Source: Patescibacteria group bacterium (GTDB lineage Bacteria > Patescibacteriota > Patescibacteriia > Buchananbacterales > UBA6539). From it: a stretch of 64,000 nt of DNA. Position numbers and translations under genes: made by a program. The DNA lies in contig JAVEXP010000001.1 in assembly GCA_034003985.1 (NCBI GenBank), positions 68,924-132,923 of the forward strand, in the 5' to 3' direction. A model generated the notes under the pieces. The model was not told where the DNA came from and ran no database searches. It saw nothing but the letters and a program-made list of their open reading frames with translations. This document shows positions 1,473-62,498 of the stretch, piece by piece; positions within the stretch are counted from its first letter, which is position 1; every line of letters begins with the position of its first letter.

Positions 1473-3293
1473 ATGTTTAATAAACAAATTTTTGGTTTAG
1501 ATATTTCGGATCATTCAGTTGAGCTGGTTTTGTTGGAAAAACCATTGTTTGGTAAGGTTAAGGCCGTCGCATACAGCCGCCTGGTTTTGCGAGGAAATTT
1601 GATCAGTAACGGGGTAATTAAAGATAAGCTGAAATTGTCGGAAAGTTTGACTAAATTATTGGAGTCCGCCAAGCCTCGGTCGGTTAGGACTAGATACTGT
1701 GTTGTTTCATTGCCGGATTCGCAGGTTTTCACCACGGTTTTTAAGTTTCCGGCCGGACTAAGACATAGTGAAATTCAAAAAACTATTCCGTTTAAAGCGG
1801 AAGAAGCAATTCCGTTTAAAGCTAGCGAAGTATATTTTGATTTTAAGACAATCAGCGTCCAGGGTTCTAGCCAGGATGTTTTTTATGTTGCCGCGCCGAT
1901 TAAAATCGTTGATGACTATATTGATCTCTTGAGCTCGGCGGGATTGAAACCAATCGCTTTTGATTTGGAGTCAATCAGTCTGGCGCGGGCAGTTATCGGC
2001 CAAACCGTTCAGAAGGATCAGGCGACTTTGTTGGTGGATATCGGTTCGCGGACTACCAGCGTCAATATTTTTGACCAAAACGGCATCAGGCAAAATTTGG
2101 TCATCAAAACCGGCGGTAACCGTTTTGCCAAAGCCTTGGCAACCAAATTAAAAATGACAGTTAAGGATGCCGAAGTATTAAAAATTAAGAATGGTTTTGA
2201 TCAAAAGAAACAGTCGGCCAAGGCCCTGGCGATTTTACAGAAAGAGGCCGAAAAAATTATTTTAGAAATAAACAGCCTGATTGATTATTATCAAACTCAG
2301 ACTCAGCGTCAGGTTGGATCAATTATTTTGGTCGGCGGTTGCTCGTTGATGCCCGCCATTGATCAATATCTGGCTAACACTTTACAAAGAGAGGTAAATC
2401 TTGGCCAACCATTGATGATGGTTGCCGACCGTCAACAGCTCTTGAAGCTGAAAGATCGGGCGGTGTTTTTTGCCAATGCTATCGGTTTGGCTTTGAGGGG
2501 CTTGGCACGCGATGCGGGTGGTTCGGACATCAATTTATTGCCGATGTTGTCCCCAGCCAAGTTTGCTTTTTTCCCAAAATCGCATGATTTAAAAGTTCGG
2601 CGAAGGTTTAAAATTAGGTTGGTTGTTTTGGTGGTTTTGCTGGCGATACTGATAACTTTGGTGATTCTAAAGCAGCGCGGATTTGATTTATATAGTAAAG
2701 TTATGCCAACCTATGATTATGAAACATACTCGTCGTCTGACATCGAACTTGATATATTGAATGAATTGCGTCAGGAGCTGCTTAATGCTGACACAACGAC
2801 TACGCCGACCGTAATGCCACCGGTGGTCAAAGTTAAAATTAAGCCGACCAGCGTAGGGTTCCTTAATGTTCGAGAGGGCGCGGGTACTGATTTTGCTAAA
2901 GTCGGACAAGCCGATTCCGGGGCGGAATATCAGTTTTTGGAGGAAATTGACGGGTGGTATAAAATCACCCTTGATGACGGATTAGCCGGTTGGGTATCGG
3001 CCACCTTTGCGGAATTGCTGGAAGAGCCGGCCGTTTCAGCAGGTAACGCCTCGTCAACACCAGAAGTTTTGGGTGTTTCTAATGAGGACAGCCTGATAAT
3101 AAAAATTTCTCCAACCGAGCTTGGATATTTAAATGTCCGTCGGCGACCGGATATCGGATCGGACAAGATTGGTCAAGCGGCTGCCGGGGAAGAATTCGAA
3201 GTCTCGGCCCAAGTCGATGGCTGGTATCAAATTACGCTGACTGACGGCAATCAAGGCTGGGTGTCTTCAGTCTACGCTAAAGAAATTAATTAA
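1473..3293 (+). CDS. pilM: Type IV pilus assembly protein PilM (actin-like ATPase) fused to a PilN-like TM segment and two C-terminal SH3b-like repeats
   Basis: A strong SD 'AAGGAGG' precedes the ATG. The N-terminus 'IFGLDISDHSVELVLLEK' is PilM/FtsA-like. A TM stretch 'IRLVVLVVLLAILITLVIL' lies around residue 375. The C-terminus carries two repeats, 'GWYKITLDDGLAGWVSATFAE' and 'GWYQITLTDGNQGWVSSVYAKE', typical of bacterial SH3. Confidence 0.65.
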   Translation: MFNKQIFGLDISDHSVELVLLEKPLFGKVKAVAYSRLVLRGNLISNGVIKDKLKLSESLTKLLESAKPRSVRTRYCVVSLPDSQVFTTVFKFPAGLRHSEIQKTIPFKAEEAIPFKASEVYFDFKTISVQGSSQDVFYVAAPIKIVDDYIDLLSSAGLKPIAFDLESISLARAVIGQTVQKDQATLLVDIGSRTTSVNIFDQNGIRQNLVIKTGGNRFAKALATKLKMTVKDAEVLKIKNGFDQKKQSAKALAILQKEAEKIILEINSLIDYYQTQTQRQVGSIILVGGCSLMPAIDQYLANTLQREVNLGQPLMMVADRQQLLKLKDRAVFFANAIGLALRGLARDAGGSDINLLPMLSPAKFAFFPKSHDLKVRRRFKIRLVVLVVLLAILITLVILKQRGFDLYSKVMPTYDYETYSSSDIELDILNELRQELLNADTTTTPTVMPPVVKVKIKPTSVGFLNVREGAGTDFAKVGQADSGAEYQFLEEIDGWYKITLDDGLAGWVSATFAELLEEPAVSAGNASSTPEVLGVSNEDSLIIKISPTELGYLNVRRRPDIGSDKIGQAAAGEEFEVSAQVDGWYQITLTDGNQGWVSSVYAKEIN

Positions 3294-3322: not shown

Positions 3323-3808
3323 ATGAAAAGATTTCGAGGGTTTACCCTAATCGAACTGTTGATAGTCATTGCGGTAATCGCCATTTTGGCTGCGATTATT
3401 TTTGTGGCGGTTGATCCGGCCCGGCGGCTTGCGGAAGCCCGCAACGCAGCGCGTTGGAGTTCAGTCAATTCAATTCTGAACGCTTATTTGAAGTATACAG
3501 TGGACTACAGCGGTCAAGAGCCAGTAAGCTTGACCCCTGATACCGAGTATATGATCGGCACCGGAGCAAGTGCGACTAATTGTGAATCAGTCGGTGGCGG
3601 TACCGGTACGACTACCAGCGCAGTGATTGACCTTTCACCGTTGGTTGACACTTATTTGTCGTCAATTCCTTATGATGATACTGCCGGCGGCGATGCCAGT
3701 AAGACATTCTATTGGATCAAGAAGACTATGAATGGCCGTATTACCATTGGTGCTTGCGGAGCGGAAATAGCCGGCGGTAATACGCCAACCATTACTGTTA
3801 CCCGTTAA
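3323..3808 (+). CDS. Type IV pilin (prepilin)
   Basis: The N-terminus 'RGFTLIELLIVIAVIAILAAIIFVAV' is a prepilin cleavage motif plus a conserved hydrophobic helix. Confidence 0.75.
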   Translation: MKRFRGFTLIELLIVIAVIAILAAIIFVAVDPARRLAEARNAARWSSVNSILNAYLKYTVDYSGQEPVSLTPDTEYMIGTGASATNCESVGGGTGTTTSAVIDLSPLVDTYLSSIPYDDTAGGDASKTFYWIKKTMNGRITIGACGAEIAGGNTPTITVTR

Positions 3809-3827
3809 GCCTGATTTGACTTTATTA

Positions 3828-3880
3828 AAGAGCTTCTGGACCGGATTAGCCGTCTGACCAGAAGCTCTTTTTTGATTTTT
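3828..3880 (+). terminator. Rho-independent terminator after pilin 1
   Basis: Inverted repeat 'aaagagcttctgg ... ccagaagctcttt' is followed by a T-run. Confidence 0.6.
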
Positions 3881-3927
3881 TAATTTATGGTATAATTCAA
3901 CCAGATAATAAAGGTAATTTTAAACTT

Positions 3928-4446
3928 ATGAACAAAAAACGAGGGTTAACTTTAATTGAGTTGTTGATTGTGATCGCCATTATCGCCATTCTGGCGGCGA
4001 TTATTTTTGTGGCAGTTGATCCGGCCCGGCGGCTGGCGGAAGCCCGCAATGCTGAGCGCTGGAGTTCGGTTAATTCAATTTTGAACGCCTATCTAAAATA
4101 CAGTGTTGATCATGATGGTGATTTGCCGGCCAGTAATGGTGTGGTTGATGATTATCCTGCCACGGTTCAGATTATTGGTGAGGGCGGTACGGCCTGCAGT
4201 TCGGTTGAGTGTGCCGGTGGGGAGAATTCAAGTTTGTCGGTAGTTTCATCTGGTTGCTTCGTGAACGGTTTGGATACTGATTTGGCTGGACCTTATTTGT
4301 CGGCGGTGCCAAAGGACCCGAAAACCGGTACGGATAATGACACCCGGTATTATGTCAACAAGACTACTGACGGCCGAATTGTGGTTGGCGCTTGTGATCC
4401 AGAAACCGTCGGCGGCGAAACTCCCGATATTGAAGTGAGTAGATAA
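3928..4446 (+). CDS. Type IV pilin paralog. The N-terminal roughly 58 aa are nearly identical to the upstream pilin and the C-terminal domain is divergent.
   Basis: 'RGLTLIELLIVIAIIAILAAIIFVAVDPARRLAEARNAERWSSVNSILNAYLKY' compared with the same segment in ORF 3323. The nucleotide identity is about 85% over about 160 nt. Confidence 0.75.
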   Translation: MNKKRGLTLIELLIVIAIIAILAAIIFVAVDPARRLAEARNAERWSSVNSILNAYLKYSVDHDGDLPASNGVVDDYPATVQIIGEGGTACSSVECAGGENSSLSVVSSGCFVNGLDTDLAGPYLSAVPKDPKTGTDNDTRYYVNKTTDGRIVVGACDPETVGGETPDIEVSR

Positions 4447-4463
4447 TTTAGAGTATCATTTTT

Positions 4464-4497
4464 AAAAAATCAACCCTATTTATGGGGTTGATTTTTT
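4464..4497 (+). terminator. Rho-independent terminator after pilin 2
   Basis: Hairpin 'aatcaaccc-tatttat-ggggttgatt' is followed by TTTTT. Confidence 0.6.
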
Positions 4498-4536
4498 ATG
4501 TTACAATGAAAAAAATACTTAATCTATTGAAATTAT

Positions 4537-5049
4537 ATGGCTAAGAAGGCAGTATTTATTATCGCTCAAAACAATTTTCGAGATGAAGAATTGCTGGACA
4601 CCAAGGCGGTTTTAACCGGGCGAAAAATTGAAGCTAAGGTTGCGGCCAAAACCAGAAATAAGGCTTTGGGTAAGCTGGGGACTGAAATTAAACCGGATTT
4701 GGCGATTGCTGAAATTAATCCCAATGACTTTGACGCCATTGTCTTTATTGGCGGCCGTGGAGCAGAACAATATTTTGACGACCAGGAAGTGTTTAAGTTG
4801 GCCGAGAAATTTTTCCGTGGTGGCAAACTAGTCGGGGCAATTTGTATTGCCCCGTCAATTTTGGCCAATGCTGGAGTTTTAATTGGTAAGACCGTTACCG
4901 CTTTTCCGACCGAGGAAGAGAATTTAAGAGATCGTGGAGCTGAATATACCGGGATGCAAGTTGAAGTTGATGGCAAAATCGTCACTGCCAAAGACCCGAC
5001 GGCGGCAAAGGAGTTTGGAGAGAAGTTGGCTTATCTGCTTGAAGGATAA
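4537..5049 (+). CDS. DJ-1/PfpI family protein (class I glutamine amidotransferase-like)
   Basis: Nucleophile elbow 'GAICIAP' and the 'DAIVFIGGRG' pattern are typical of DJ-1/ThiJ/PfpI. Confidence 0.8.
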   Translation: MAKKAVFIIAQNNFRDEELLDTKAVLTGRKIEAKVAAKTRNKALGKLGTEIKPDLAIAEINPNDFDAIVFIGGRGAEQYFDDQEVFKLAEKFFRGGKLVGAICIAPSILANAGVLIGKTVTAFPTEEENLRDRGAEYTGMQVEVDGKIVTAKDPTAAKEFGEKLAYLLEG

Positions 5050-5141
5050 TTTTTAATTTTGAATTTATAATTTCAAATCAATTTTTATTACTGAATTATT
5101 TAAAATTTATTAAAAACTGAAAATTAAAAAATTTGGTTTTT

Positions 5142-6092
5142 ATGTTATATGATGTCATAATTATCGGCGCGGGACCGGCCGGAGTGGCGGCTACGGTTTA
5201 TGTGGCCAGAAAAAAATTAAAAGTTTTATTGATCACTGATTCTTTTGGCGGCCAGTCGATTGTTTCCGATGATATTCAAAATTGGATTGGTGAAAAAAGC
5301 ATTTCGGGGTTTGATTTGGCCAAAAAGTTGGAAGATCATGTTAAAAATTTCAACAAGGAGATTGAAATTAAAGAAGGTCGGCAAGCGGTTGGGATAAAAA
5401 AAATAAATTGTCCGGATGGTTTGTACGAATGTAATTTTGAAGTTACTACCGACCAAAATAATAAATATATCAGTAAGACTTTGATTTTAGCCAGTGGTGC
5501 CAGGAGACGAAAACTGGGGGTTAAGGGTGAACAAGAATTTGAAGGACGGGGAGTGGCTTACTGTTCTACTTGTGATGCACCATTATTCAACGGTCGCGAT
5601 GTGGCGGTAGTTGGCGGCGGTAATTCCGGTGGCGAAGCGGTGGTTGATCTTTTGCCTTATACTAATAAAATTTATCTTTTAAATCGGTCTGATATTTTAA
5701 AAGCTGATTTAGTTACGCAGGACCAGATCAGAAATAATAAAAAGGTCAGTTTAATAATGAACGCCGAGATTTTAGAAATTTTGGGAGATCAGTTTGTTTC
5801 AGGTTTAAAATATAAAGATAATAAGACTGGTGAAGAAAAGCAAATTGAGGTCCAGGGGGTATTTGTTGAAATTGGATCAATTCCGAACTCCGAAATTGTT
5901 AAAGATTTGGTTGAGTTGGATCGTTTTGGTCAAGTTGTTATAGATTCCAAACATGCTACTACTTCACAACCCGGTATTTTTGCGGCTGGTGACATTACCG
6001 ATGATCCTTATAAACAGAACAATATTTCGGCCGGTGACGGAGTGAAGGCTGCCTTAGCAGCATACGCTTATATTTTGCAACTTCATAAATAA
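5142..6092 (+). CDS. trxB: Thioredoxin-disulfide reductase (FAD/NAD(P)-binding)
   Basis: 'YDVIIIGAGPAG' is an FAD fold. 'CSTCDAPLF' is the redox-active CxxC. 'VAVVGGGNSGGEA' is the NADPH site. The ATG at 5142 is preferred over the TTG at 5133. Confidence 0.8.
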   Translation: MLYDVIIIGAGPAGVAATVYVARKKLKVLLITDSFGGQSIVSDDIQNWIGEKSISGFDLAKKLEDHVKNFNKEIEIKEGRQAVGIKKINCPDGLYECNFEVTTDQNNKYISKTLILASGARRRKLGVKGEQEFEGRGVAYCSTCDAPLFNGRDVAVVGGGNSGGEAVVDLLPYTNKIYLLNRSDILKADLVTQDQIRNNKKVSLIMNAEILEILGDQFVSGLKYKDNKTGEEKQIEVQGVFVEIGSIPNSEIVKDLVELDRFGQVVIDSKHATTSQPGIFAAGDITDDPYKQNNISAGDGVKAALAAYAYILQLHK

Positions 6093-8141: not shown

Positions 8142-10962
8142 AAAAATAACCGATCAAATCACAATTAGGGGTGCTCGGGAGCATAATCTCAAGAATATCG
8201 ATGTGGATATTCCAATTGATAAACTCACGGTGATTACCGGTTTGTCCGGTTCGGGCAAGTCTACTTTGGCGTTTGATACTTTGTATGCCGAAGGCCAGCG
8301 CCGGTATGTGGAAAGTCTGTCGGCTTACGCGCGGCAGTTCTTGGGACTGATGAACAAGCCGGAGGTCGATAAAATCACCGGTTTGTCGCCGGCCATTTCG
8401 ATTGAACAAAAATCAATTTCCAAAAACCCGCGTTCGACGGTGGGAACAATTACGGAAATTTCCGACTATTTAAGGTTGCTTTACGCCAGGGTGGGCAAGC
8501 CTCATTGTCCAAATTGCGGCAAACCGATTATGTCGCAATCAGCTGAAAGTATCAGTGAAATTATTCAACAGGAAAGCGCTGGAACAAAAATCCAAATCCT
8601 CGCGCCGGTGATCAGGGCTAAAAAAGGAACATACGAGAAATTGTTTAAGAGTTTTTTTGACAAGGGCTTTAGTCGAGTCAGGTTGGATGGTGAAACATTG
8701 GATTTGTCGGATTGGGAAAATTTTGAACTTAATAAGCAAATCAAGCATAATATTGAGTTGGTGGTTGATCGCTTGGAGATTAAAAAAGGAGTCAGCTCCC
8801 GACTTACCGACGCGGTGGAAGTGGCTTTGTCGGAAGCCGATGGTTTGGTATTGGCGATTATTGGCGACCAAGAAAGATTGTTTTCGCAACATAATGCCTG
8901 TTTGGATTGCGGCATTTCAATTGAGGAATTGCAGCCCAGAATGTTTTCGTTTAATTCGCCGTTTGGCGCTTGCTTGGAATGTCACGGTTTAGGATTTTTA
9001 CAGCAGGTTGATGAAGATTTGGTGATTCCCGACCCCGGTTTATCACTGGCCGAAGGAGCGGTTCGGCCCTGGCAAACTTATGGCGAAGGCTGGCGCTATC
9101 AATTATTGGAAGGCTTATCAGGCCATTACAGCTTTGATTTACAAACGCCTTACAAAGATTTACCGCGGAAAATAAAAGATATCATTTTGCACGGTTCTGA
9201 TGAGGATGTCAGGTTTCATATGCATTCCAGCAAGAAGAACTCGAACTATAACTGGGTTGGCCAATTTGAGGGTATCATCCCGCAAATTGAGCGGCTTTAT
9301 CAACAAACTGATTCAGAATACCGCCGTCGGGAAATGGAAAAGTATATGCGGGTTGGATCATGTCCGGTCTGCGGCGGCAAACGGTTGAAACCCGAAACTT
9401 TGGCGGTGACGGTCGGTGGTAAAAATATTTGGGAGGTAAGCGAATTATCAGTCGATAAGGCCCTGGATTTTTTTAGAGCTTTAAACCTAAGTAAATCGGA
9501 GAGTGAAATTGCTAAATTAATTTTGCGCGAGATTGAAAATCGTTTAAAATTTTTGATTGATGTCGGATTGAATTATTTGACACTATCGCGTGAAGCCAGA
9601 ACACTGTCTGGCGGTGAAGCTCAGCGGATCCGGCTGGCAACCCAGATCGGTTCAGAACTGCGGGGGGTGTTATATATTTTGGATGAGCCGTCAATTGGTT
9701 TACATCAGCGCGATAATCAAAAATTAATCAAAACTTTGAAAAACTTGAGAGATTTAGGCAATACCGTGGTGGTGGTAGAACATGATGAAGAAACGATTTT
9801 GGAAGCCGATCAAGTAATAGATTTGGGACCTGGGGCGGGAATTCACGGCGGTCAGATTGTTTGTGCCGGGCCACCCGATAAAATCAAGAAGTGCAAGGAT
9901 TCAATCACTGCTCAATATTTGAGCGGGCATAAGAAGATTTTAACGCCAACAAAACGCCGAAAGGCATTTGATTATTTGGAAATCCTCGGTGCCGCCCAGA
10001 ATAATCTTAAAAATATCGATGTTAAAATTCCGCTTAAAGTTTTTACCTGCGTGACGGGAGTATCCGGTTCTGGTAAAAGTAGTTTAATTAATGATATTTT
10101 ATACAAAGCTTTGTATAAGATATTTTGGGCCAGCTTGGAAAAACCGGGCAAATATAAAGCGCTCAAAGGCCATGGTAATCTGGATAAGGCGATTATTGTC
10201 GATCAGTCGCCGATTGGCCGGACGCCGCGCAGCAATCCGGCAACTTATATCGGGGTATTTACGCCGATTCGCGAATTGTTTGCCCATACCGCCGAAGCCA
10301 AGGCTCGGGGCTATAAGGCCGGAAGATTCAGTTTTAATGTGGCTGGCGGACGGTGCGAGGAATGCGAAGGCGATGGCGTTAAAAGAATTGAAATGAATTT
10401 TTTGCCCGATGTCTATGTCGAATGTGAAAAGTGCAAAGGCAGTCGTTACAATAAAGAAACTTTGGAGGTTAAATATAAAAACAAAACGATTGCCGATGTT
10501 TTAAACATGACAGTCGAAGAAGCTTTGATGTTTTTTAGACATATTCCGGCAATCCAGGCTAAATTGCAGACTTTGTGTGATGTTGGACTTGGTTATATCG
10601 CTTTGGGCCAAGCCGCCACGACTTTGTCTGGCGGGGAAGCTCAGCGGATCAAATTGACTTCGGAATTATCGCGCAAGGGTGGCAACACAATGTATATTTT
10701 AGACGAACCAACCACAGGACTGCATTTTGACGATGTTAATAAATTATTGACTGTTCTGAACAGATTGGTCGACAAAGGCAATAGCGTAGTAGTGATTGAA
10801 CATAATTTGGATGTGGTTAAATCCTCGGATTGGGTGATTGATTTGGGACCGGAAGGCGGGGATAAAGGCGGCCGGATTGTGGCGGAAGGTACGCCGGAAA
10901 AAATAGCCAAATGTGCTAGATGGTCTTATACTGGTAAATATTTGGCAAAAGTTTTGAAATAG
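8134..10962 (+). CDS. uvrA: Excinuclease ABC subunit A
   Basis: There are two ABC ATPase modules ('[14 protein letters not shown]', '[13 protein letters not shown]'), two 'LSGGEAQRI' signatures and zinc-finger Cys clusters. It overlaps the uvrB stop by 8 nt. Confidence 0.95.
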
Positions 10963-28752: not shown

Positions 28753-28840
28753 TCGGTTCTTGACTTTCACTTAAAATTTAATTTAAAGTAATATAAATCG
28801 GCGGAAACGGGTTCCGTTTGATATATAAGGAGGATTTGCC

Positions 28841-29485
28841 TTGGGAAACGGAGAGCAGTTTTTTCTGGAACAGTTTCGGCAACGCCAAGCCTTGTGGATT
28901 TATCAAGGCGAACCGCGAGCTGAAGCGCCACATGGGTTGATGACCTCGGGGAAGCATTCCAAAGGCTATTTTAACAGCACACCGATCGTTCGCGATCCGA
29001 AGCTGTTGTCGGTAGCCTGTGGTACCCTGCTGCATTCGATAAGCGTTGACCCCAAAGATGTCGGCGAAGTCTGGGGTAGCGCAATGGGTGCGATTATGAT
29101 GGCCTATGAGTTGGCCCAACAAATTGGTGCGCTTTCGGGCTACACTGAGAAGCAGGAAGGAAACATGGTGGTTGGTCGCAATGCGATTCAGCCCGGCACT
29201 CGTGTGCTGCTGGTGGAAGATGTTATCACCACCGGCGGTACGACTTTGAAAACGGTGGCCGCGCTGGAGTCGGCGGGAGCCATCGTGATGGGAGAAATTC
29301 TGGCGTTGGTAAACCGTTCGGGCCTGACTGAACTGAACGGTCGTAAGATCGTGTCCTTGATTGAGCAGGAGTTGCCCTTGTGGAGCGCGGCTGAATGTCC
29401 GTATTGCCGGGTTGGTTCCGAGGCTTTGCGGCCCAAGGGCGAGAACTGGTTTCGACTTGTCGGAACAGGAGGTGAAACAGGATGA
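28841..29485 (+). CDS. Orotate phosphoribosyltransferase-like type I PRTase (TTG start)
   Basis: A perfect SD 'AAGGAGG' lies 6 nt before the TTG. 'VLLVEDVITTGGT' is the PRPP-binding motif. 'SGKHSKGYFN' resembles the PyrE 'SGRKSPYFFN'. GC is about 60%. Confidence 0.75.
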   Translation: MGNGEQFFLEQFRQRQALWIYQGEPRAEAPHGLMTSGKHSKGYFNSTPIVRDPKLLSVACGTLLHSISVDPKDVGEVWGSAMGAIMMAYELAQQIGALSGYTEKQEGNMVVGRNAIQPGTRVLLVEDVITTGGTTLKTVAALESAGAIVMGEILALVNRSGLTELNGRKIVSLIEQELPLWSAAECPYCRVGSEALRPKGENWFRLVGTGGETG

Positions 29486-30354
29486 ACGCTTTCTTGTCTT
29501 TGATCCGGGATGCTGGCGGTGATGAGCGAACCCGGATCTGTGTTGGGCTGGATCCTGAAATCGCGCGGCTTCCCGTCTGTGTCAGAGGGTCTAACCCAGC
29601 GGAACGAGTGATGTCGTTTTCGACTGATGTGGCCGCTGCTACAGCGCAGTTTGCTTTGGCCTTTCAAACCAAGCTGGCCATCTGGCAAGCGGTTGGCGCT
29701 GAAGAACAACTGGCAAAACTGATTGCTTATATTCAAGGGCAATTGGGTCGGCCGGTGATCTTGGACGCCAACTATGGCGATGTTCCGGCAATATCCGCGG
29801 AATATGCGAAAGCCGCTTTCGATCGTTTCGACGCTAGCGCGGTAACGCTGAATGTCTATCACGGTCGAGACAGCCTGGTTCCCTGGCTGAAGCGCGGTCC
29901 GGAAAAAGGACTGTTCGTTGTCTGCCACACCAGCAACGACATGGCCAGTGATTTTCAGGACCTGCAGGTCAACCCGGTTGGTAATGGCGGCCATTTGCCA
30001 TTGTTCGTCCATTTGGCTCATCAGGTGCTGCAGCTGCGGTCGGACGACAGCGCAACTATCGGATTCGTGATGGACGAAGCATTCCCGATGCATATTACCA
30101 GCCTTCGGCCGCAAGCTGGTGACTGGTGGTGGCAGCCATCAGAGATTCCGTTGCTGATCGGGTATTCGTCGGGGCAGCTTGAGGAGTTGGTAGGGCGGGC
30201 TTCGTTCTATCCTTTCCTGCTGAGCTGTTCGCGAGGGATAATCCACGCTTCGGAGGAGTCGGATTTTGCCCAGGCCGCCGCTAATGCCGCCGAGGGCTTG
30301 CGTAACCGAGTCAACATGGTGTTGGAAAACAAGGAGGGATGTCGTGTCGGCTAA
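29482..30354 (+). CDS. Orotidine-5'-phosphate decarboxylase-like (type 2 / HUMPS family) with a non-canonical active-site motif
   Basis: 'ICVGLDP', 'VTLNVYHG' and 'VCHTSNDM' match type-2 ODCase blocks. The DxKxxD block reads 'ILDANYGDV', so the catalytic Lys is replaced by Asn and the Arg by Tyr. The ATG overlaps the upstream stop and has SD 'GGAGGTGA'. Confidence 0.7.
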   Translation: MNAFLSLIRDAGGDERTRICVGLDPEIARLPVCVRGSNPAERVMSFSTDVAAATAQFALAFQTKLAIWQAVGAEEQLAKLIAYIQGQLGRPVILDANYGDVPAISAEYAKAAFDRFDASAVTLNVYHGRDSLVPWLKRGPEKGLFVVCHTSNDMASDFQDLQVNPVGNGGHLPLFVHLAHQVLQLRSDDSATIGFVMDEAFPMHITSLRPQAGDWWWQPSEIPLLIGYSSGQLEELVGRASFYPFLLSCSRGIIHASEESDFAQAAANAAEGLRNRVNMVLENKEGCRVG

Positions 30355-30490
30355 CTCACAATCGTACCCCGGTCGACCCAGGAAATGCAGTAATGTTCCA
30401 GGGTCGAAGGCCTGTGATAAGTGCCGGAAGAACAACGGAACTTATTGCCAGTACTGCACCGCTTGGCAGAATGCCAGCGGCAAGAAGTAG
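30344..30490 (+). CDS. 48-aa zinc-ribbon-like Cys-rich small protein (GTG start)
   Basis: SD 'AAGGAGGG' lies 5 nt upstream of the GTG. The product is 'VSANSQSYPGRPRKCSNVPGSKACDKCRKNNGTYCQYCTAWQNASGKK', with CxxC...CxxC spacing. GC3 is about 64%, matching the island. Confidence 0.4.
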   Translation: MSANSQSYPGRPRKCSNVPGSKACDKCRKNNGTYCQYCTAWQNASGKK

Positions 30491-30507
30491 TACTACTACA
30501 TATAACT

Positions 30508-30556
30508 TTGACCCCGCCTTTGGATGAAATGAGGGTGACCACTGGCGGGTCTTTTT
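30508..30556 (+). terminator. Putative terminator after the small Cys-rich ORF
   Basis: Stem 'gacccgcc/ggcgggtc' with a roughly 25-nt loop is followed by TTTTTT. It precedes a short AT-rich, promoter-like spacer. Confidence 0.35.
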
Positions 30557-30667
30557 TATTTGATTTATTGACTTTTTGTCGATTTGTTAGTAAGTTTAGG
30601 TACTCGGTTTATAAATCGAGTGACAGTGCTAAACAGGAATCTACCGCAACGGAAAGGGAGATCAGCC

Positions 30668-31774
30668 ATGCCAACATTGACAGGTGGAACATTGTTACTA
30701 GAAGAGGAAGGTCTGGCCGGAATCAAACCCGGTTTGATCAAGCATGCACTGTTTGACAGTGACGGAACCATCTCGCTCTTGCGGGCGAAATGGGATCTGG
30801 TAATGGCGCCAATGATGTGCCGGGCGATTTGCGGTGAGGGAAACACAGTGCCCCAGGAAGTGGCCGAGATCGTTTCCGACACCATTGAGGAAACAACGGG
30901 CATTCGGACAATTCGCCAGATGGAGCTGCTGGTCAATCTGGTCATGCAGTTCGGGCTGGTGCCTGACGATCAGGTCAAGGATGCTTGGGGGTACAAGGCC
31001 GACTATTTGGCGGCATTGATGGTGCCGGTCAACGAGCGGATTGCGCGCGTTCAGTCCGGCGCTTGCAAGCCGGAGCATTTTATGGTTCGGGGGATTGGGA
31101 CTCTCCTGGAACTGTTTTGCCAAGTCGGAATCGACATGCGGGTGTTCTCCGGCACCGATGAACCCGATGTGCGACGCGAACTCGAAGTGCTGGGAGTCCT
31201 TCACCATTTCACCTCAGTTCACGGGGCAGCACCGGCGCTGAAGCCCGGAGAACCTGAAATCGACAAGGAACAGGTTCTCCAATGCTTGATGGAAGAGCAG
31301 GGGCTCAAAGGCGAGGAAGTTTTGATCATCGGCGACGGTCCGGTGGAAATCAAGCTTGCGCGGCAGTTCGGCTGTTGGGCCATTGGCGTTTGTTCGAAAG
31401 AGGGCGATGATCGCAAAGGCTATGATCAGGCCAAGGTCGCGCGTCTGACCAAGGCCGGGGCCCATGTGCTTATCCCCGATTTCAGCGACGCTTGCCGCTT
31501 GGTACGCGAACTGTTCAAAGTCGCGTCAATCATCGAGCCGGCCAATTTTCCGCTGCCGGAAGATGAAGACATGCTGTCGTTGCTTGGCTTTATCCGCAAC
31601 CAGGTCAGCAACGGCGAATTCAAGCCTGGCGACTTGTTGCCCACCCCGGAAGAATTTGTCGAGCGCTTTTCCCAGATCGTCGGGCATCGGGTTTATCCTG
31701 AAACCGTGGTCGGACTGTACAACGCGTCCGAACATATCAAGCGGCGTGACTATGACGGCTATGTGATTGTCTAA
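30668..31774 (+). CDS. HAD superfamily hydrolase (subfamily IA-like phosphatase) with a roughly 150-aa C-terminal extension
   Basis: The ATG has SD 'AAGGGAG'. 'ALFDSDGTIS' is motif I (DxDGT). 'SGTD' is motif II. 'IIGDGPVE' is motif IV. Confidence 0.7.
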   Translation: MPTLTGGTLLLEEEGLAGIKPGLIKHALFDSDGTISLLRAKWDLVMAPMMCRAICGEGNTVPQEVAEIVSDTIEETTGIRTIRQMELLVNLVMQFGLVPDDQVKDAWGYKADYLAALMVPVNERIARVQSGACKPEHFMVRGIGTLLELFCQVGIDMRVFSGTDEPDVRRELEVLGVLHHFTSVHGAAPALKPGEPEIDKEQVLQCLMEEQGLKGEEVLIIGDGPVEIKLARQFGCWAIGVCSKEGDDRKGYDQAKVARLTKAGAHVLIPDFSDACRLVRELFKVASIIEPANFPLPEDEDMLSLLGFIRNQVSNGEFKPGDLLPTPEEFVERFSQIVGHRVYPETVVGLYNASEHIKRRDYDGYVIV

Positions 31775-31912: not shown

Positions 31913-32035
31913 TAGTAATTCAACGAACAAACCGTGACAACCCGTTATTTGCTGGGGCCTTGACCGTGCGTCGAGGCTCGTTTTTTTACATTTTGGAAAT
32001 TTTTGTTTGGGTTTAATCTGTGTTAAAATAAGTTT

Positions 32036-58631: not shown

Positions 58632-60194
58632 TTACAGGCCCAGAATAATCGGGGATGAGAACGAGGGCAGGGTGCTACCGTCGTCCATCGTCACCCGCCA
58701 GCCGCTATTGAATTGCGGTTGGCCAAAGAGCGTGGGGTCGAAAATACCCAGCGGACCGCTGCGATGCAGGTCGGTCCAGATGAAGTAAGCCTGGGAAGCT
58801 GCTTCATCGTAGGTGGCCGGCAAGGGGGCGGGGAAAGACTGGTCCCCGACCAGGTTGGTGACGATCGCGGCGTCGGCCTGGCCGGGTGGAATATTCAAAT
58901 CGGCCATCAGCCAGAGCCGTTCGCCTTGATCAATCTGACCGTCAGGAATCACTTGCGGCTCCAAATCAACGATGACCAAGCCGTCGGCATCAAGCTGGCC
59001 GGTGCCAACCACACCCTGAAATTCGCGCCAGACGCGAAAGTTGCTCGCGGTCACATGCTGCGTCTGGACCTTGAAGGTCAGGCGGCAGAGTGCCAAATCG
59101 TCCCAGCCGCCGTTGGTGACGGCGAGCGGGAAGAGGATTTGGTTGTTGATATGGCCAACAACCAGGCGCGCGCCATGCAGCGGCAAGATGCTGACTATGG
59201 GCACACTCTGAAAAACAGTGAACTGCCCTGAGGTTGCCTGGCCAATCCCACCTAAGAGCTGGTTCGAATCCAGCCCGCGTCCGACAATCTCTTCTCCGGG
59301 CACGAAAACCGTGAAACCTTGGCCGGATTCGGCGGGGCCAGTCTCGCAATCGCCCGTCTCCACCTTGATCGTGAAGTGCTCGGGTACTCCGGGCTGGAGA
59401 ACCAGCGGTTCGGCAAAGTTGACTACCGCGCTGCCAGCCGTCAAAGGTATTGGCTCTTCCCAAGAGTCGTCGGTGCTGGGGACAGCCGAACCCAGGAAGT
59501 CGGCGCCGTGATAGACACTGACTTGCCCGATTTGATCCGGCCCGCCATCGTTGACTTTACTGAAGTAGATTGGCAAGCCGCTGATTTCCACTGGTTCGCG
59601 TTCGGCATCAAGGGCGACTTCCAGGATGCTGATTCCGGAAGTGTTGGCGGGTAAAAGCCCGGATCGGGGAGAGTTGCCGCCGGTACCGACATTAATTTCA
59701 CCGCCGGCGACCACTTGAATGATCGGTCCAAACTGAATCAGCTCCGGCGATTCCTGACTCATTCCGGCGACCATTGAGGTGGACGCCTGAATAGCGCATT
59801 CCATTGCCGAGGTGGCAATATCGCCGATCAGTTGGGCAGTCATTTGCTGGTTGGCACTGAAGGCCAAGGGCTGGGCCAGCAGGAAGCGGATCTGGGCGAC
59901 GCTTTGGTCGGGGTCAAACAGTCCCGCGTTGGGATCGTTGACGGTTTGTGCCAGCTCGCCGTCAATCAGCAAGCCGACATTGGCCAGAACATTGACCCCG
60001 GCGCCATTGACATTGACTCCGAAAGTCAGTTGGGAAAGGGTTGTCGGGCTTTTGTCGCCGTTGAGCTGCAGGTCCAGCAGGACAATGCCTTGCGAGCCGG
60101 CAATCACGGTGAAACCCTGGGTGGCGGTAATGGTCACGGTCACACAACCGGCCAATACTACACTCATCAGAACCAGAATCAAAGACTTACGCAT
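58632..60194 (-). CDS. Large secreted lipoprotein of unknown function (GC-rich gene, about 60% GC)
   Basis: The ATG at 60194 has SD 'AAGGAGA'. 'MRKSLILVLMSVVLAGCVTV' is the lipobox. It is Gly/Val/Thr-rich and beta-rich in composition. Confidence 0.5.
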   Translation of the reverse strand: MRKSLILVLMSVVLAGCVTVTITATQGFTVIAGSQGIVLLDLQLNGDKSPTTLSQLTFGVNVNGAGVNVLANVGLLIDGELAQTVNDPNAGLFDPDQSVAQIRFLLAQPLAFSANQQMTAQLIGDIATSAMECAIQASTSMVAGMSQESPELIQFGPIIQVVAGGEINVGTGGNSPRSGLLPANTSGISILEVALDAEREPVEISGLPIYFSKVNDGGPDQIGQVSVYHGADFLGSAVPSTDDSWEEPIPLTAGSAVVNFAEPLVLQPGVPEHFTIKVETGDCETGPAESGQGFTVFVPGEEIVGRGLDSNQLLGGIGQATSGQFTVFQSVPIVSILPLHGARLVVGHINNQILFPLAVTNGGWDDLALCRLTFKVQTQHVTASNFRVWREFQGVVGTGQLDADGLVIVDLEPQVIPDGQIDQGERLWLMADLNIPPGQADAAIVTNLVGDQSFPAPLPATYDEAASQAYFIWTDLHRSGPLGIFDPTLFGQPQFNSGWRVTMDDGSTLPSFSSPIILGL

Positions 60195-60362
60195 GCCACT
60201 TCTCCTTCTTGTTGGCATATTCCATTGTAGGGAACACAAAATTGTACTCATTTTGAGCACCTCAAAACATACCATAAAATATGATTTTTGTCAATAATTA
60301 TGCTTGAATTAACCCGGTTTTTTTGCTATTTTTAAATAGTTGAAACTAAATAATTAGCTAAA

Positions 60363-62498
60363 ATGAAATACAAAATTATTGTTTTTGGTTGCGGTTTTAA
60401 CCAGATTGATGCTGAACGGGCCGCGGCTGTTTTGGAAAAAATTGGCTACCAGTCTACGGAGAAAGATTTTGAGACTGACTTGTTTTTGGTGCTGGCTTGC
60501 TCCGTTCGTCAGTCGGCCATTGACCGGGTGATGGGGCTGGAACACAGATTTAATCAGATTAAAAAGACCCGGCCGATAATTACTTTATTGTCCGGTTGTG
60601 TATTGCCAACTGACAAATCAAAAATGAGCAAGTTTTTTGATATTGTTTTTCCGATTAATGATTTAGTTAAACTGCCGGTAATGTTGGCTCAAAAATCTTT
60701 GGATTTACCGACTGATTATTTGAAAGTTCGGCCAAGCTATCGTTCAACTTTTCAGGCCTCGGTGCCGGTCATTAATGGCTGTAATAATTTTTGTACTTAT
60801 TGCGCCGTGCCTTATGTTCGGGGAAGGGAAAAATCCAGAAAGGCCAAAGATGTTTTGGCCGAATGCCAAGCGTTGGTGGCCCAAGGATATAAATATATTG
60901 AATTGCTCGGTCAAAATGTTAACAGCTATCAAGACGGCAGGATTAATTTTCCGAAATTATTAAAGCAAGTGGATAATATTCCCGGGGATTATTGGCTGAG
61001 CTTTGCTTCCTGTCATCCCAAAGACATGTCGGATGAATTAATCGCAGTGATGGGCAAGGCTAAACATTTGATTCCCTATTTAAATTTGCCCCTGCAGGCC
61101 GGGGATAATGAAGTGATTCAGCGGATGAATCGTAATTATATGGTTAGTCATTATAAAAATTTGATTCGTAAAATCAGAAAAGCCGTACCGGGGATTGCTG
61201 TTTCGACTGATATGATCGTTGGCTTTCCCGGCGAGACTAGGACCCAGTTCAACAATACTGCTAAGTTGATGAAAGAAGTTGAATTTGACATGGCTTTTTT
61301 GGCCCGTTATTCGCCAAGGCCGGGGACAGCGGCAGCCAAGCTGGTTGATGATGTCAAACCGGCTGAAAAGAAACGGCGCGAAGAAGCGTTAAATAAGATT
61401 TTAAAACAAACGGCCTTGAAGAAAAACCAAGTTTTTGTCGGACAAAATATTGAAGCATTAGTAACCGAATATCGCCATGGTTTTTGCTTTGGCCGGACTA
61501 AACATTTCAAGAATATTAAGTTTAAAAGCGAAGTTGATTTAACCGGCCAACTAGTGCTGGTAAAAGTTACCAGCTGTTATTCCTGGGGATTGCGTGGCGA
61601 GCTGCCTAAGGTGGTGGTAATTTTGGGCACGACTTCGGCGGGCAAGACCAGCTTGGCCGTTAAGCTAGCCCGTAAGTTTAAGGGCGAGATTATTTCGGCT
61701 GATTCGCGTCAGGTCTATACCGGCATGGATATTGGTACGGGTAAAGATTTGGAAGAATATGGTAAAATTCCTCATCATTTGATTGACGCTGAATTGCCAA
61801 AGAACCAGTATACTTTAGCCCAATGGCAGCAGGGGGCCAACGCGGCAGTTAAAGATGTTTTGCAGCGCCAGAAGCTGCCGATTGTTTGTGGCGGCACAGG
61901 TCTTTATATTTCGGCGCTGGTTGACGGTTATCAGCTAGCCCAAGCCAGTGAAGATAAACAGCTTAGAAACCGTTTGGCTAGGCTGACTTTGAAACAATTG
62001 CTGGCCAGGCTGAAAAAGGTTGATCCCAAAACCTACGAAGTCATTGATCGGCAGAATCGGCGCCGAGTTCAGCGGGCGCTGGAAATTTATTATCAAACCG
62101 GAATTACCAAGTCGCAACAGGCTAAACCCCAAAAACCGCCTTATCAATTTTTGAAGCTTGGCATTACTTTTCCTAAAGAAGTGCTGAAGGCGCGGATTGC
62201 CAAAAGATTGAAGCATCGTTTGGAAAAAGAAGGGATGATTGAAGAAATTAAAAAATTGCACCAGCAAGGAGTGAGCTATCAGCGCTTGGAGGAGTTTGGC
62301 TTGGAATATCGCTGGGTCGGCCGTTACTTAAGAAAGCAATTGAGTTATGAAGAGATGTACAATAATTTGGAAAAAGCGATTAATGATTTTGCCAAGCGCC
62401 AAATGACTTGGTTTAAACGAGATCAAGAGATTGAGTGGGTGAGTGATTATCAGCAAGCTGAGAGGAAAATTAGAAAATTTTTGAGTGATAAAGGATGA
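60363..62498 (+). CDS. miaB-miaA: Bifunctional fusion of a MiaB-like radical SAM methylthiotransferase (N-terminal) and tRNA dimethylallyltransferase MiaA (C-terminal)
   Basis: The MTTase domain has three Cys (GC, 'LACSVR', 'SGCV'). The radical SAM motif is 'CNNFCTYCAVPYVRG'. The TRAM domain runs to 'LVLVKVTSC'. From about residue 418, 'VVVILGTTSAGKTSLAVKLA...ISADSRQVYTGMDIGTGK...PIVCGGTGLYISAL' carries the MiaA P-loop and motifs. Confidence 0.8.
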   Translation: MKYKIIVFGCGFNQIDAERAAAVLEKIGYQSTEKDFETDLFLVLACSVRQSAIDRVMGLEHRFNQIKKTRPIITLLSGCVLPTDKSKMSKFFDIVFPINDLVKLPVMLAQKSLDLPTDYLKVRPSYRSTFQASVPVINGCNNFCTYCAVPYVRGREKSRKAKDVLAECQALVAQGYKYIELLGQNVNSYQDGRINFPKLLKQVDNIPGDYWLSFASCHPKDMSDELIAVMGKAKHLIPYLNLPLQAGDNEVIQRMNRNYMVSHYKNLIRKIRKAVPGIAVSTDMIVGFPGETRTQFNNTAKLMKEVEFDMAFLARYSPRPGTAAAKLVDDVKPAEKKRREEALNKILKQTALKKNQVFVGQNIEALVTEYRHGFCFGRTKHFKNIKFKSEVDLTGQLVLVKVTSCYSWGLRGELPKVVVILGTTSAGKTSLAVKLARKFKGEIISADSRQVYTGMDIGTGKDLEEYGKIPHHLIDAELPKNQYTLAQWQQGANAAVKDVLQRQKLPIVCGGTGLYISALVDGYQLAQASEDKQLRNRLARLTLKQLLARLKKVDPKTYEVIDRQNRRRVQRALEIYYQTGITKSQQAKPQKPPYQFLKLGITFPKEVLKARIAKRLKHRLEKEGMIEEIKKLHQQGVSYQRLEEFGLEYRWVGRYLRKQLSYEEMYNNLEKAINDFAKRQMTWFKRDQEIEWVSDYQQAERKIRKFLSDKG

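Follow-up and report, generated by a model that had tools for sequence, protein, structure and literature searches.

The 64,000-nucleotide stretch analyzed here (the window; contig JAVEXP010000001.1 of assembly GCA_034003985.1) is a chromosome piece of a Patescibacteria metagenome-assembled genome that encodes UvrABC, DnaE, tRNA synthetases and a V-type ATPase. On its forward strand lies a gene for a PyrE-like phosphoribosyltransferase (PRTase; 28841..29485, 214 aa, NCBI MDX9892869.1), followed by a gene for a homolog of type-2 orotidine-5'-phosphate (OMP) decarboxylase (PyrF) with a remodelled active site (29482..30354, 290 aa, NCBI MDX9892870.1), which is the subject of this study and is called the ODC-like gene. 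A small Cys-rich open reading frame (ORF) and a gene for a HAD-IA hydrolase come next. Both NCBI and JGI annotate the product of the ODC-like gene as 'orotidine-5'-phosphate decarboxylase'.

The descent of the protein is not in doubt. A sequence-only reading of this DNA had proposed the type-2 fold from conserved blocks in the same order as in the family (ICVGLDP at residues 19-25, TKLAIWQ at 63-69, ILDANYGDV at 93-101, VTLNVYHG at 121-128 and VCHTSNDM at 147-154), and profile and structure comparisons bear this out. The TIGR02127 model is passed marginally, with 115.6 bits over residues 13-266 (cutoff 110.6), while sister orthologs score 176-203 and a Lysobacter protein 247; PF00215 gives 39.5 bits (cutoff 27) over residues 18-168 alone. 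The AlphaFold2 model, for which 111 homologs served as input, reaches a pLDDT of 95.3 and a pTM of 0.93, and its top 39 Foldseek matches in the PDB are all type-2 OMP decarboxylases (OMPDCs) with a (beta/alpha)8 barrel (TM 0.72-0.79; E 1e-16 against 4mjz). The 290-aa start is supported and is used in the NCBI gene call, whereas the JGI call (P0001, 247 aa) begins at Met44 and thereby drops 43 N-terminal residues (29482-29610) that align with homologs. In the Pfam and NCBIfam scans PyrF models alone matched, and those for 3-keto-L-gulonate-6-phosphate decarboxylase (KGPDC) and 3-hexulose-6-phosphate synthase (HPS) did not. The suggestion that substitutions such as those described below occur in neofunctionalised HUMPS-family enzymes thus found no support; KGPDC and HPS, the HUMPS enzymes, retain the lysine of the DxKxxD motif.

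It is this lysine that the ODC-like protein lacks. A phmmer search against the PDB sets 'vildanygd' opposite 'pilldakrgd' of the T. gondii OMPDC and 'pvvldakrgd' of the Leishmania enzyme, and Asn97, encoded by AAC at 29770-29772, stands in the Lys column in MAFFT alignments with 17 and with 111 homologs. No neighboring lysine fits into this column, the next one downstream being K110. In a survey of 268 homologs, drawn from the 120 best clusters at 90% identity and 150 representatives at 50% identity, the lysine is present in 266; the exceptions are the ODC-like protein itself and P0122, a fragment of the same variant from a second sample or sister strain (L007, see below). The claim that the proton-donor lysine has become Asn therefore stands, since ILDANYGD matches DAKRGD column for column and phmmer, MAFFT and the survey agree. 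The adjacent replacement of Arg by Tyr, to which attention had been drawn as well, is real but not special: sister orthologs with an intact lysine carry Tyr, Phe, Trp or Ser at this position (DAK[YFWSR]GD), and variation of this type runs through the entire local clade, in which the active sites are otherwise canonical. Further members of the variant did not emerge. Scans of the GTDB species genomes with the ODC-like protein revealed none, and scans with the clade alignment found only canonical PyrF (proteobacterial and others, 34-41%); one JGI metagenome yielded a single 30% match, and a HMMER search of 1.84 billion representatives added only the fragment P0122 from L007.

The sequence-only reading was right about the lost lysine, but had spotted one of about a dozen changes, which include K62Q, N64K, K97N, G102P, T104I, the replacement of GAT by DEA, the deletion of a Pro-Gly pair and Q229S. 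At the end of strand 2 (residues 60-64 in the AlphaFold2 model), Q62-T63-K64 (29665..29673, forward strand, as are the three sites that follow) stands for K-P-N/Q. The first lysine of the catalytic tetrad (YKPN or FKPQ), conserved in 266 of the 268 homologs, is thus Gln62 (FQTK), and a lysine has appeared two positions further on, where the other homologs always have Asn or Gln. In the alignment with homologs, D95-A-N97-Y98-G-D100-V-P102-A-I104 (29764..29793) corresponds to DAK(R)GDIGNT. Here DIGNT has become DVPAI, and with it the Gly and the Thr of the ribose contact contributed by the second subunit of the dimer are gone; we take T79' to be the counterpart of this Thr. On strand 6, D198-E199-A200 (30073..30081) replaces a G-A-T motif that is 95-97% conserved and places two acidic side chains in the barrel pocket. 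Loop 7, the phosphate gripper (PG(I/V)GxQGG), is shortened as well: LLIPGxGxQGG is matched by LL, a gap of three residues and IGYSSGQ (LLIGYSS at 30151..30171), so that the Pro-Gly is missing and the Gln of GxQGG is Ser229, although the Pro-Gly and Gln columns are 97-98% conserved.

Of the tetrad Lys-Asp-x-Lys-x-x-Asp', both lysines are consequently gone, and D95 and D100 are kept. Also retained are the strand-1 Asp (D24), T150-S151-N152 of loop 5, G227, G231 and S250-R251, the Ser-Arg phosphate site of strand 8. Among 47 columns with a conservation of 85% or more, the ODC-like protein deviates in 12, compared with a median of 3 in the other homologs and 2-5 in the sister orthologs. Where the sister clade and proteobacterial PyrF share the same residue, it has 18 changes, 11 of which fall into the five active-site motifs. 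The consequences of single losses are known from canonical enzymes: the DxK lysine is the proton donor, and K72A lowers the activity of the M. thermautotrophicus enzyme about 10^5-fold, while the first lysine positions the ribose and the Asp, and Sc K59A (equivalent to K42) decreases kcat 100-fold and increases Km 1000-fold (PMC12395307). The loop-7 Gln has a role in loop closure, and the roles within the tetrad were assigned in the same work (PMC12395307). Given this pattern of replacements, the ODC-like protein very probably no longer works as an OMP decarboxylase.

The variant is present in a second strain. L007, a contig of 13.7 kb assembled from another JGI sample, is 88% identical to the window at the DNA level over 13 kb. 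The assembly is noisy: every gene contains single-base indels, and since these occur at an equal rate in all genes, its frameshifts represent assembly noise. Codon-wise comparison of the window and L007 gave a dN/dS of 0.18 for the ODC-like gene (95% bootstrap confidence interval 0.11-0.28), a value that is based on one comparison partner, whose errors can only inflate it, and that falls to 0.13 if a badly aligned N-terminal patch is left out. The corresponding values are 0.09 for the PRTase gene, 0.12 for the HAD gene and 0.03-0.05 for flanking housekeeping genes. Thus the ODC-like gene is under purifying selection and is not a dead gene, in line with the earlier claim that it is functional. 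The two sequences agree at Q62, K64, N97, Y98, P102, D198, E199, A200, Y228, S229, S230 and C249 and at the retained R251; I104M and G227E distinguish them. On the whole, the former active-site positions evolve at about the average rate of the protein.

The partner PRTase tells a different story. Its PRPP motif VLLVEDVITTGGT and its C-terminal CPxC are intact, the TIGR01367 pyrE_Therm model gives 110.3 bits compared with 107.9 for the ortholog in the sister locus L002, and the nearest solved structure is the orotate phosphoribosyltransferase 4paw. It is 59% identical to the orthologs of L002 and L005 and deviates at 6 of 57 conserved columns (sisters 5 and 7), with conservative replacements throughout. 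Judging by these features, the PRTase is not degraded and gives no sign of a change in specificity. The family is common in Patescibacteria, and in another genome a canonical type-1 pyrF follows it. Because of this pairing with a canonical pyrF elsewhere, the ancestral function of the gene pair is taken to be the conversion of orotate to OMP and further to UMP.

The two genes appear to be expressed together. A strong Shine-Dalgarno sequence for the ODC-like gene, AGGAGGTG (29467..29474, forward strand), is located 7 nt before the ATG, within the 3'-terminal part of the PRTase coding sequence, and the PRTase stop codon and the ODC-like start codon overlap as ATGA (29482-29485). This arrangement points to co-translation and agrees with the translational coupling that had been proposed. 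Upstream of the PRTase gene, a weak sigma-70-like match (28760..28789, forward strand; 9 of 12 positions, in a scan that barely exceeds shuffled sequences) might represent the promoter; the divergent intergenic region there is AT-rich (GC content 0.26). A 308-aa ORF on the reverse strand (29188-30114) extends across the PRTase and ODC-like genes without supporting homology. It is treated as spurious, as a long frame is expected opposite GC-rich coding sequence.

The order V-ATPase, 103-aa ORF, PRTase, PyrF, small ORF and UvrD-like helicase is shared with three sister lineages (L001; L002-L004; L005-L006), each of which has a canonical PyrF. If W denotes the window sequence, helicase amino acid identities are 70% for W-L001, 64% for W-L002 and 63% for L001-L002, and the respective PyrF identities are 46.5, 40.6, and 60.5%. 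Tajima tests with in-clade outgroups attribute 55-64 unique changes to the window protein and 12-19 to its nearest sisters (p ~1e-5 or lower), while counts are even if distant outgroups are employed. Shared derived sites (13 vs 6) favor placement of the window protein within the clade; in a neighbor-joining tree, its species-tree position there has a bootstrap of 21%, too low to fix its exact place.

A jump in GC content had raised the suspicion of a recent foreign insertion. For the PRTase and ODC-like genes this was rejected, since synteny and GC excess are common to all sister lineages. In all of them the PRTase and PyrF genes (and in the window the HAD gene) are GC-richer than their flanks, with a GC content at third codon positions of 0.44-0.61 vs 0.19-0.48; the GC-rich stretches span 28841-31774 in the window, 5153-6723 in L001, 7362-8843 in L002 and 1514-3002 in L005. 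Between W and L007, dS is lower in the GC-rich genes (0.30-0.43) than in the flanks (0.58-0.66). The excess may stem from an old, incompletely ameliorated transfer, or the composition may be maintained in some way. L001 is peculiar in another respect: its PyrF is an ordinary ortholog, but its PRTase (5153-5848) shares only 24-29% identity with the PRTases of L002, L005 and the window. Either a replacement of this partner gene or its very rapid divergence seems to lie behind the difference; the locus is evolutionarily restless in more than one lineage.

Downstream, the small Cys-rich ORF (30344..30490, forward strand, about 48 aa) overlaps the 3' end of the ODC-like gene and probably starts at a GTG codon. 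It carries the motif SYPGRPRKC...C.KCRK..G..C..C.AWQNA, is unannotated and has no Pfam match; possibly it forms a zinc ribbon. In every related lineage it follows the PyrF gene directly, either overlapping or abutting (L001 6720-6890; L002 ~8855-8995; L005 ~3033-3158; L007 6307-6426). With 51-58% identity across lineages and 87% in L007, it is conserved as much as, or more than, the variant PyrF in comparison with its sisters. Thus the conserved unit is PRTase-PyrF-peptide. A terminator-like hairpin with a U-run (30510..30561, forward strand; -17.7 kcal/mol, z -2.4) probably ends the transcript of this unit.

Beyond the hairpin lies the gene for the HAD-IA hydrolase (30668..31774, forward strand, 368 aa, NCBI MDX9892871.1), with a DSDGT motif and the Shine-Dalgarno sequence AAGGGAG. 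The mechanical ORF begins at a TTG (30584), but the ATG at 30668 with its Shine-Dalgarno sequence is the likelier start and is used by NCBI and JGI. The gene is found in the variant lineage only and is absent from the sister loci, and its best homologs, 45-50% identical and about 275 aa long, come from Hydrogenedentes, Nitrospirae and Calditrichaeota; by this distribution it is a horizontally acquired gene. A homolog directly follows and nearly abuts the adenine phosphoribosyltransferase gene apt in three unrelated genomes, among them Hydrogenedentes-like and Nitrospiraceae ones, while the other neighbors differ (L009 4477-5816, L094 3470-4831, L096 3472-4831). This suggests that the family is linked to PRTase chemistry, either through dephosphorylation of the nucleoside monophosphate (NMP) product or through removal of pyrophosphate (PPi). 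Its closest folds, AlnB (a phosphoribosyl-conjugate phosphatase), beta-PGM and Gph, are generic for HAD-IA and score equally. A C-terminal extension of about 100 aa (31540-31774) is absent from all of the ~275-aa homologs. It is under purifying selection (dN/dS 0.14) and has three helices in a low-confidence prediction and a weak match to a GntR-type helix-turn-helix (E 0.03); an origin of this tail from the small ORF of the sister loci was rejected on comparison. Because of the intervening hairpin and the HAD gene's own Shine-Dalgarno sequence, its link to the ODC-like gene is suggestive only. A role of the three proteins in anti-phage defence was rejected, as PADLOC found no match for them.

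Another terminator-like hairpin with a T-run follows the HAD gene (31955..31989, forward strand). In L005, a gene similar to CoA-transferase or malonate decarboxylase alpha (3561-5219, 552 aa) lies between the PyrF/small ORFs and the helicase; as the same slot holds the HAD gene in the window and another gene in L005, this position is an insertion hotspot. Rfam and tRNA scans of the window were empty. Elsewhere in the window, a second GC-rich patch (58632-60275, reverse strand; 0.55 vs ~0.42) corresponds to a 547-aa ORF without a Pfam match, hypothetical at NCBI and JGI, which may be another acquired gene. At 60363-62498 (forward strand), a 711-aa protein contains a complete MiaA domain (IPP transferase) besides MiaB-like domains (UPF0004 and radical SAM) and is apparently a fusion of two consecutive tRNA A37 modification enzymes.

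What, then, might the ODC-like protein do? We tentatively prefer, at slightly less than an even chance, to regard it as a non-catalytic ribonucleotide-binding partner of the PyrE-like PRTase. This preference arises because the gripper and catalytic elements are dismantled, the phosphate and ribose anchors are kept, the altered sites evolve at average rates and the co-translated PRTase is unchanged. The ODC-like gene would be the resident pyrF of a Patescibacteria pyrE-pyrF operon for orotate salvage, in which catalytic and gripping residues were replaced in one lineage and the barrel was kept. Ribonucleotide binding could persist through D24, D95, D100, the TSN of loop 5, S250-R251 and an amide/amine pair on strand 2, and the protein would probably act together with the PRTase as its partner, buffer or sensor. 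UMP would then be supplied by another route, or the acquired HAD hydrolase would handle the products of the PRTase (NMP or PPi).

Several points weigh against this preference. A purely structural partner role is a guess. K64, Y98, H127, D198, E199 and Y228 are residues of a catalytic type, and they fit a rebuilt active site no less well than drift. Should the PRTase still produce OMP, this product has no obvious use in a cell without a decarboxylase. The ATGA overlap is absent from the sister loci. Finally, only two sequences, one of them noisy, are available at a dS of ~0.3, which makes for a weak test of whether the new residues are conserved.

The strongest alternative, possible though on balance unlikely, is that the protein is a neofunctionalised enzyme with a more acidic and possibly metal-dependent site (D95, D100, D198 and E199, with K64, Y98, H127, Y228 and R251). 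Its substrate would be a phosphoribosyl compound from the PRTase reaction, and the subsequent loss of the 5'-phosphate through the HAD hydrolase would yield a nucleoside. The new residues cluster in the pocket and tend to be polar or ionisable instead of random, they are shared with L007 in a gene under purifying selection, and S250-R251 on the phosphate side and D24 on the ribose side persist. The gain of the HAD gene in the variant lineage alone, the pairing of its family with a PRTase gene in three unrelated genomes and the presence of AlnB among its closest solved folds fit this scenario too. However, no candidate substrate emerges, the PRTase gives no sign of a specificity change, and KGPDC and HPS models found no match. 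The support from the HAD hydrolase is weakened by the terminator-like hairpin in front of its gene, which probably has its own promoter besides its Shine-Dalgarno sequence, so that operon linkage is weak, and by fold matches so generic that beta-PGM and Gph score as well as AlnB. In addition, positions 104 and 227 differ between the two sequences, which is unlike an optimised new site. A more far-reaching version, in which the rebuilt OMPDC barrel (acid-rich through D95, D100, D198 and E199, with K64, Y98 and H127, and possibly metal-binding) would convert a phosphoribosyl product of the PRTase by a reaction other than OMP decarboxylation and, with the PRTase, the Cys-rich peptide and the HAD hydrolase, make up a short pathway to an unusual nucleotide or nucleoside, appears doubtful.

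Alternatively, the protein might still be an OMP decarboxylase in which Lys64 has taken over proton donation by migration of a catalytic residue. K64 replaces an otherwise invariant Asn or Gln, sits on the same strand and points in the same direction as the canonical Lys; D24, D95, D100, the TSN and R251 are kept; and co-translation with an intact PyrE-like PRTase is metabolically sensible only if OMP is consumed. Yet K62, the loop-7 Gln and Pro-Gly, T104 and G102 are lost as well, and Asp-Glu stands in place of GAT. Loss of the equivalent of K72 or K42 alone reduces rate or affinity by 10^2 to 10^5 (PMC12395307). The additional carboxylates next to the carboxylate and phosphate of the substrate should, moreover, repel OMP, and none of the other 267 homologs uses such an arrangement. 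We consider this migration improbable.

A gene on its way out is just as poor an explanation. Orotate salvage would have become dispensable and the activity lost, the ORF being not yet broken under relaxed constraint. The long branch, the collapsed HMM score, a dN/dS above that of the flanking housekeeping genes and the roughly average rate of the former active-site positions between W and L007 would be in accordance with decay. However, the upper bound of dN/dS (0.28) is far below 1, errors in L007 can only have raised it, and the reading frame of 290 codons has stayed open through 57-64 unique replacements relative to in-clade outgroups. The sole indel in a conserved motif is the in-frame deletion in loop 7. 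The strong Shine-Dalgarno sequence and the ATGA coupling are preserved, AlphaFold2 yields a pLDDT of 95, and conservation extends to the PRTase and to the small ORF downstream. The last alternative is an artefact, be it an error in sequencing or assembly or a misalignment concealing the true lysine. A single base separates the codons of Asn (AAC) and Lys (AAA/AAG), but such an artefact is next to inconceivable, since N97 and the same dozen other changes recur in the independent sample and assembly of L007, which excludes a read error, and three different alignment methods are concordant around the invariant ILDA-GD anchors.

OMP decarboxylase is a textbook example of an extremely proficient catalyst, with a K-D-K-D tetrad that is regarded as invariant. 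In the present case, which rests on two metagenomic sequences, a natural ortholog has lost both of these lysines as well as the phosphate-gripper loop, but selection maintains it next to an intact PyrE. The label 'orotidine-5'-phosphate decarboxylase' in public databases is thus probably wrong as a functional statement, and anyone who reconstructs the metabolism of this symbiont from it would erroneously assign orotate-to-UMP salvage to the organism. Beyond annotation, the locus offers a natural experiment on what a barrel without its catalytic residues is retained for, be it binding, partnering or new chemistry, with the canonical-site sister orthologs as ready-made controls, and it gives a small view of how nucleotide salvage is rewired in ultra-reduced Patescibacteria. 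In a limited literature search we found no description of natural Lys-less or dead OMPDC homologs or of OMPDC-like genes in nucleoside clusters; we found no close precedent there or in the homolog sets.

The comparison with known systems places the ODC-like protein closest to type-2 PyrF, as represented by the sister orthologs (P0002-P0007), Xanthomonadales and the enzymes of T. gondii, Leishmania and Plasmodium. It shares with them the (beta/alpha)8 fold and co-linearity over the full length, is 40-48% identical to the sister type-2 PyrF orthologs and proteobacterial PyrF, and occupies the orthologous locus beside a PyrE-like PRTase gene. It differs in the loss of both tetrad lysines (K62Q, K97N), in DVPAI and DEA and in the shorter loop 7. 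KGPDC (UlaD/SgbH) and HPS have the barrel in common with it and demonstrate that this scaffold supports other chemistry, with a residue other than Lys at the end of strand 2 and acidic (Glu/Asp) metal ligands. The ODC-like protein differs from them in that no model of these families matches it, the DxKxxD lysine is absent, and it was recently derived from a bona fide type-2 PyrF and not from their branch. With pseudoenzymes it shares the replacement of essential residues within an intact fold and an intact ORF under purifying selection, as well as a gene that adjoins, and is co-translated with, the gene for the enzyme that makes the ancestral substrate; a role as a partner is here a proposal. 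In the Plasmodium complexes of orotate phosphoribosyltransferase and OMPDC, and in the kinetoplastid fusion enzyme, both activities are physically associated.

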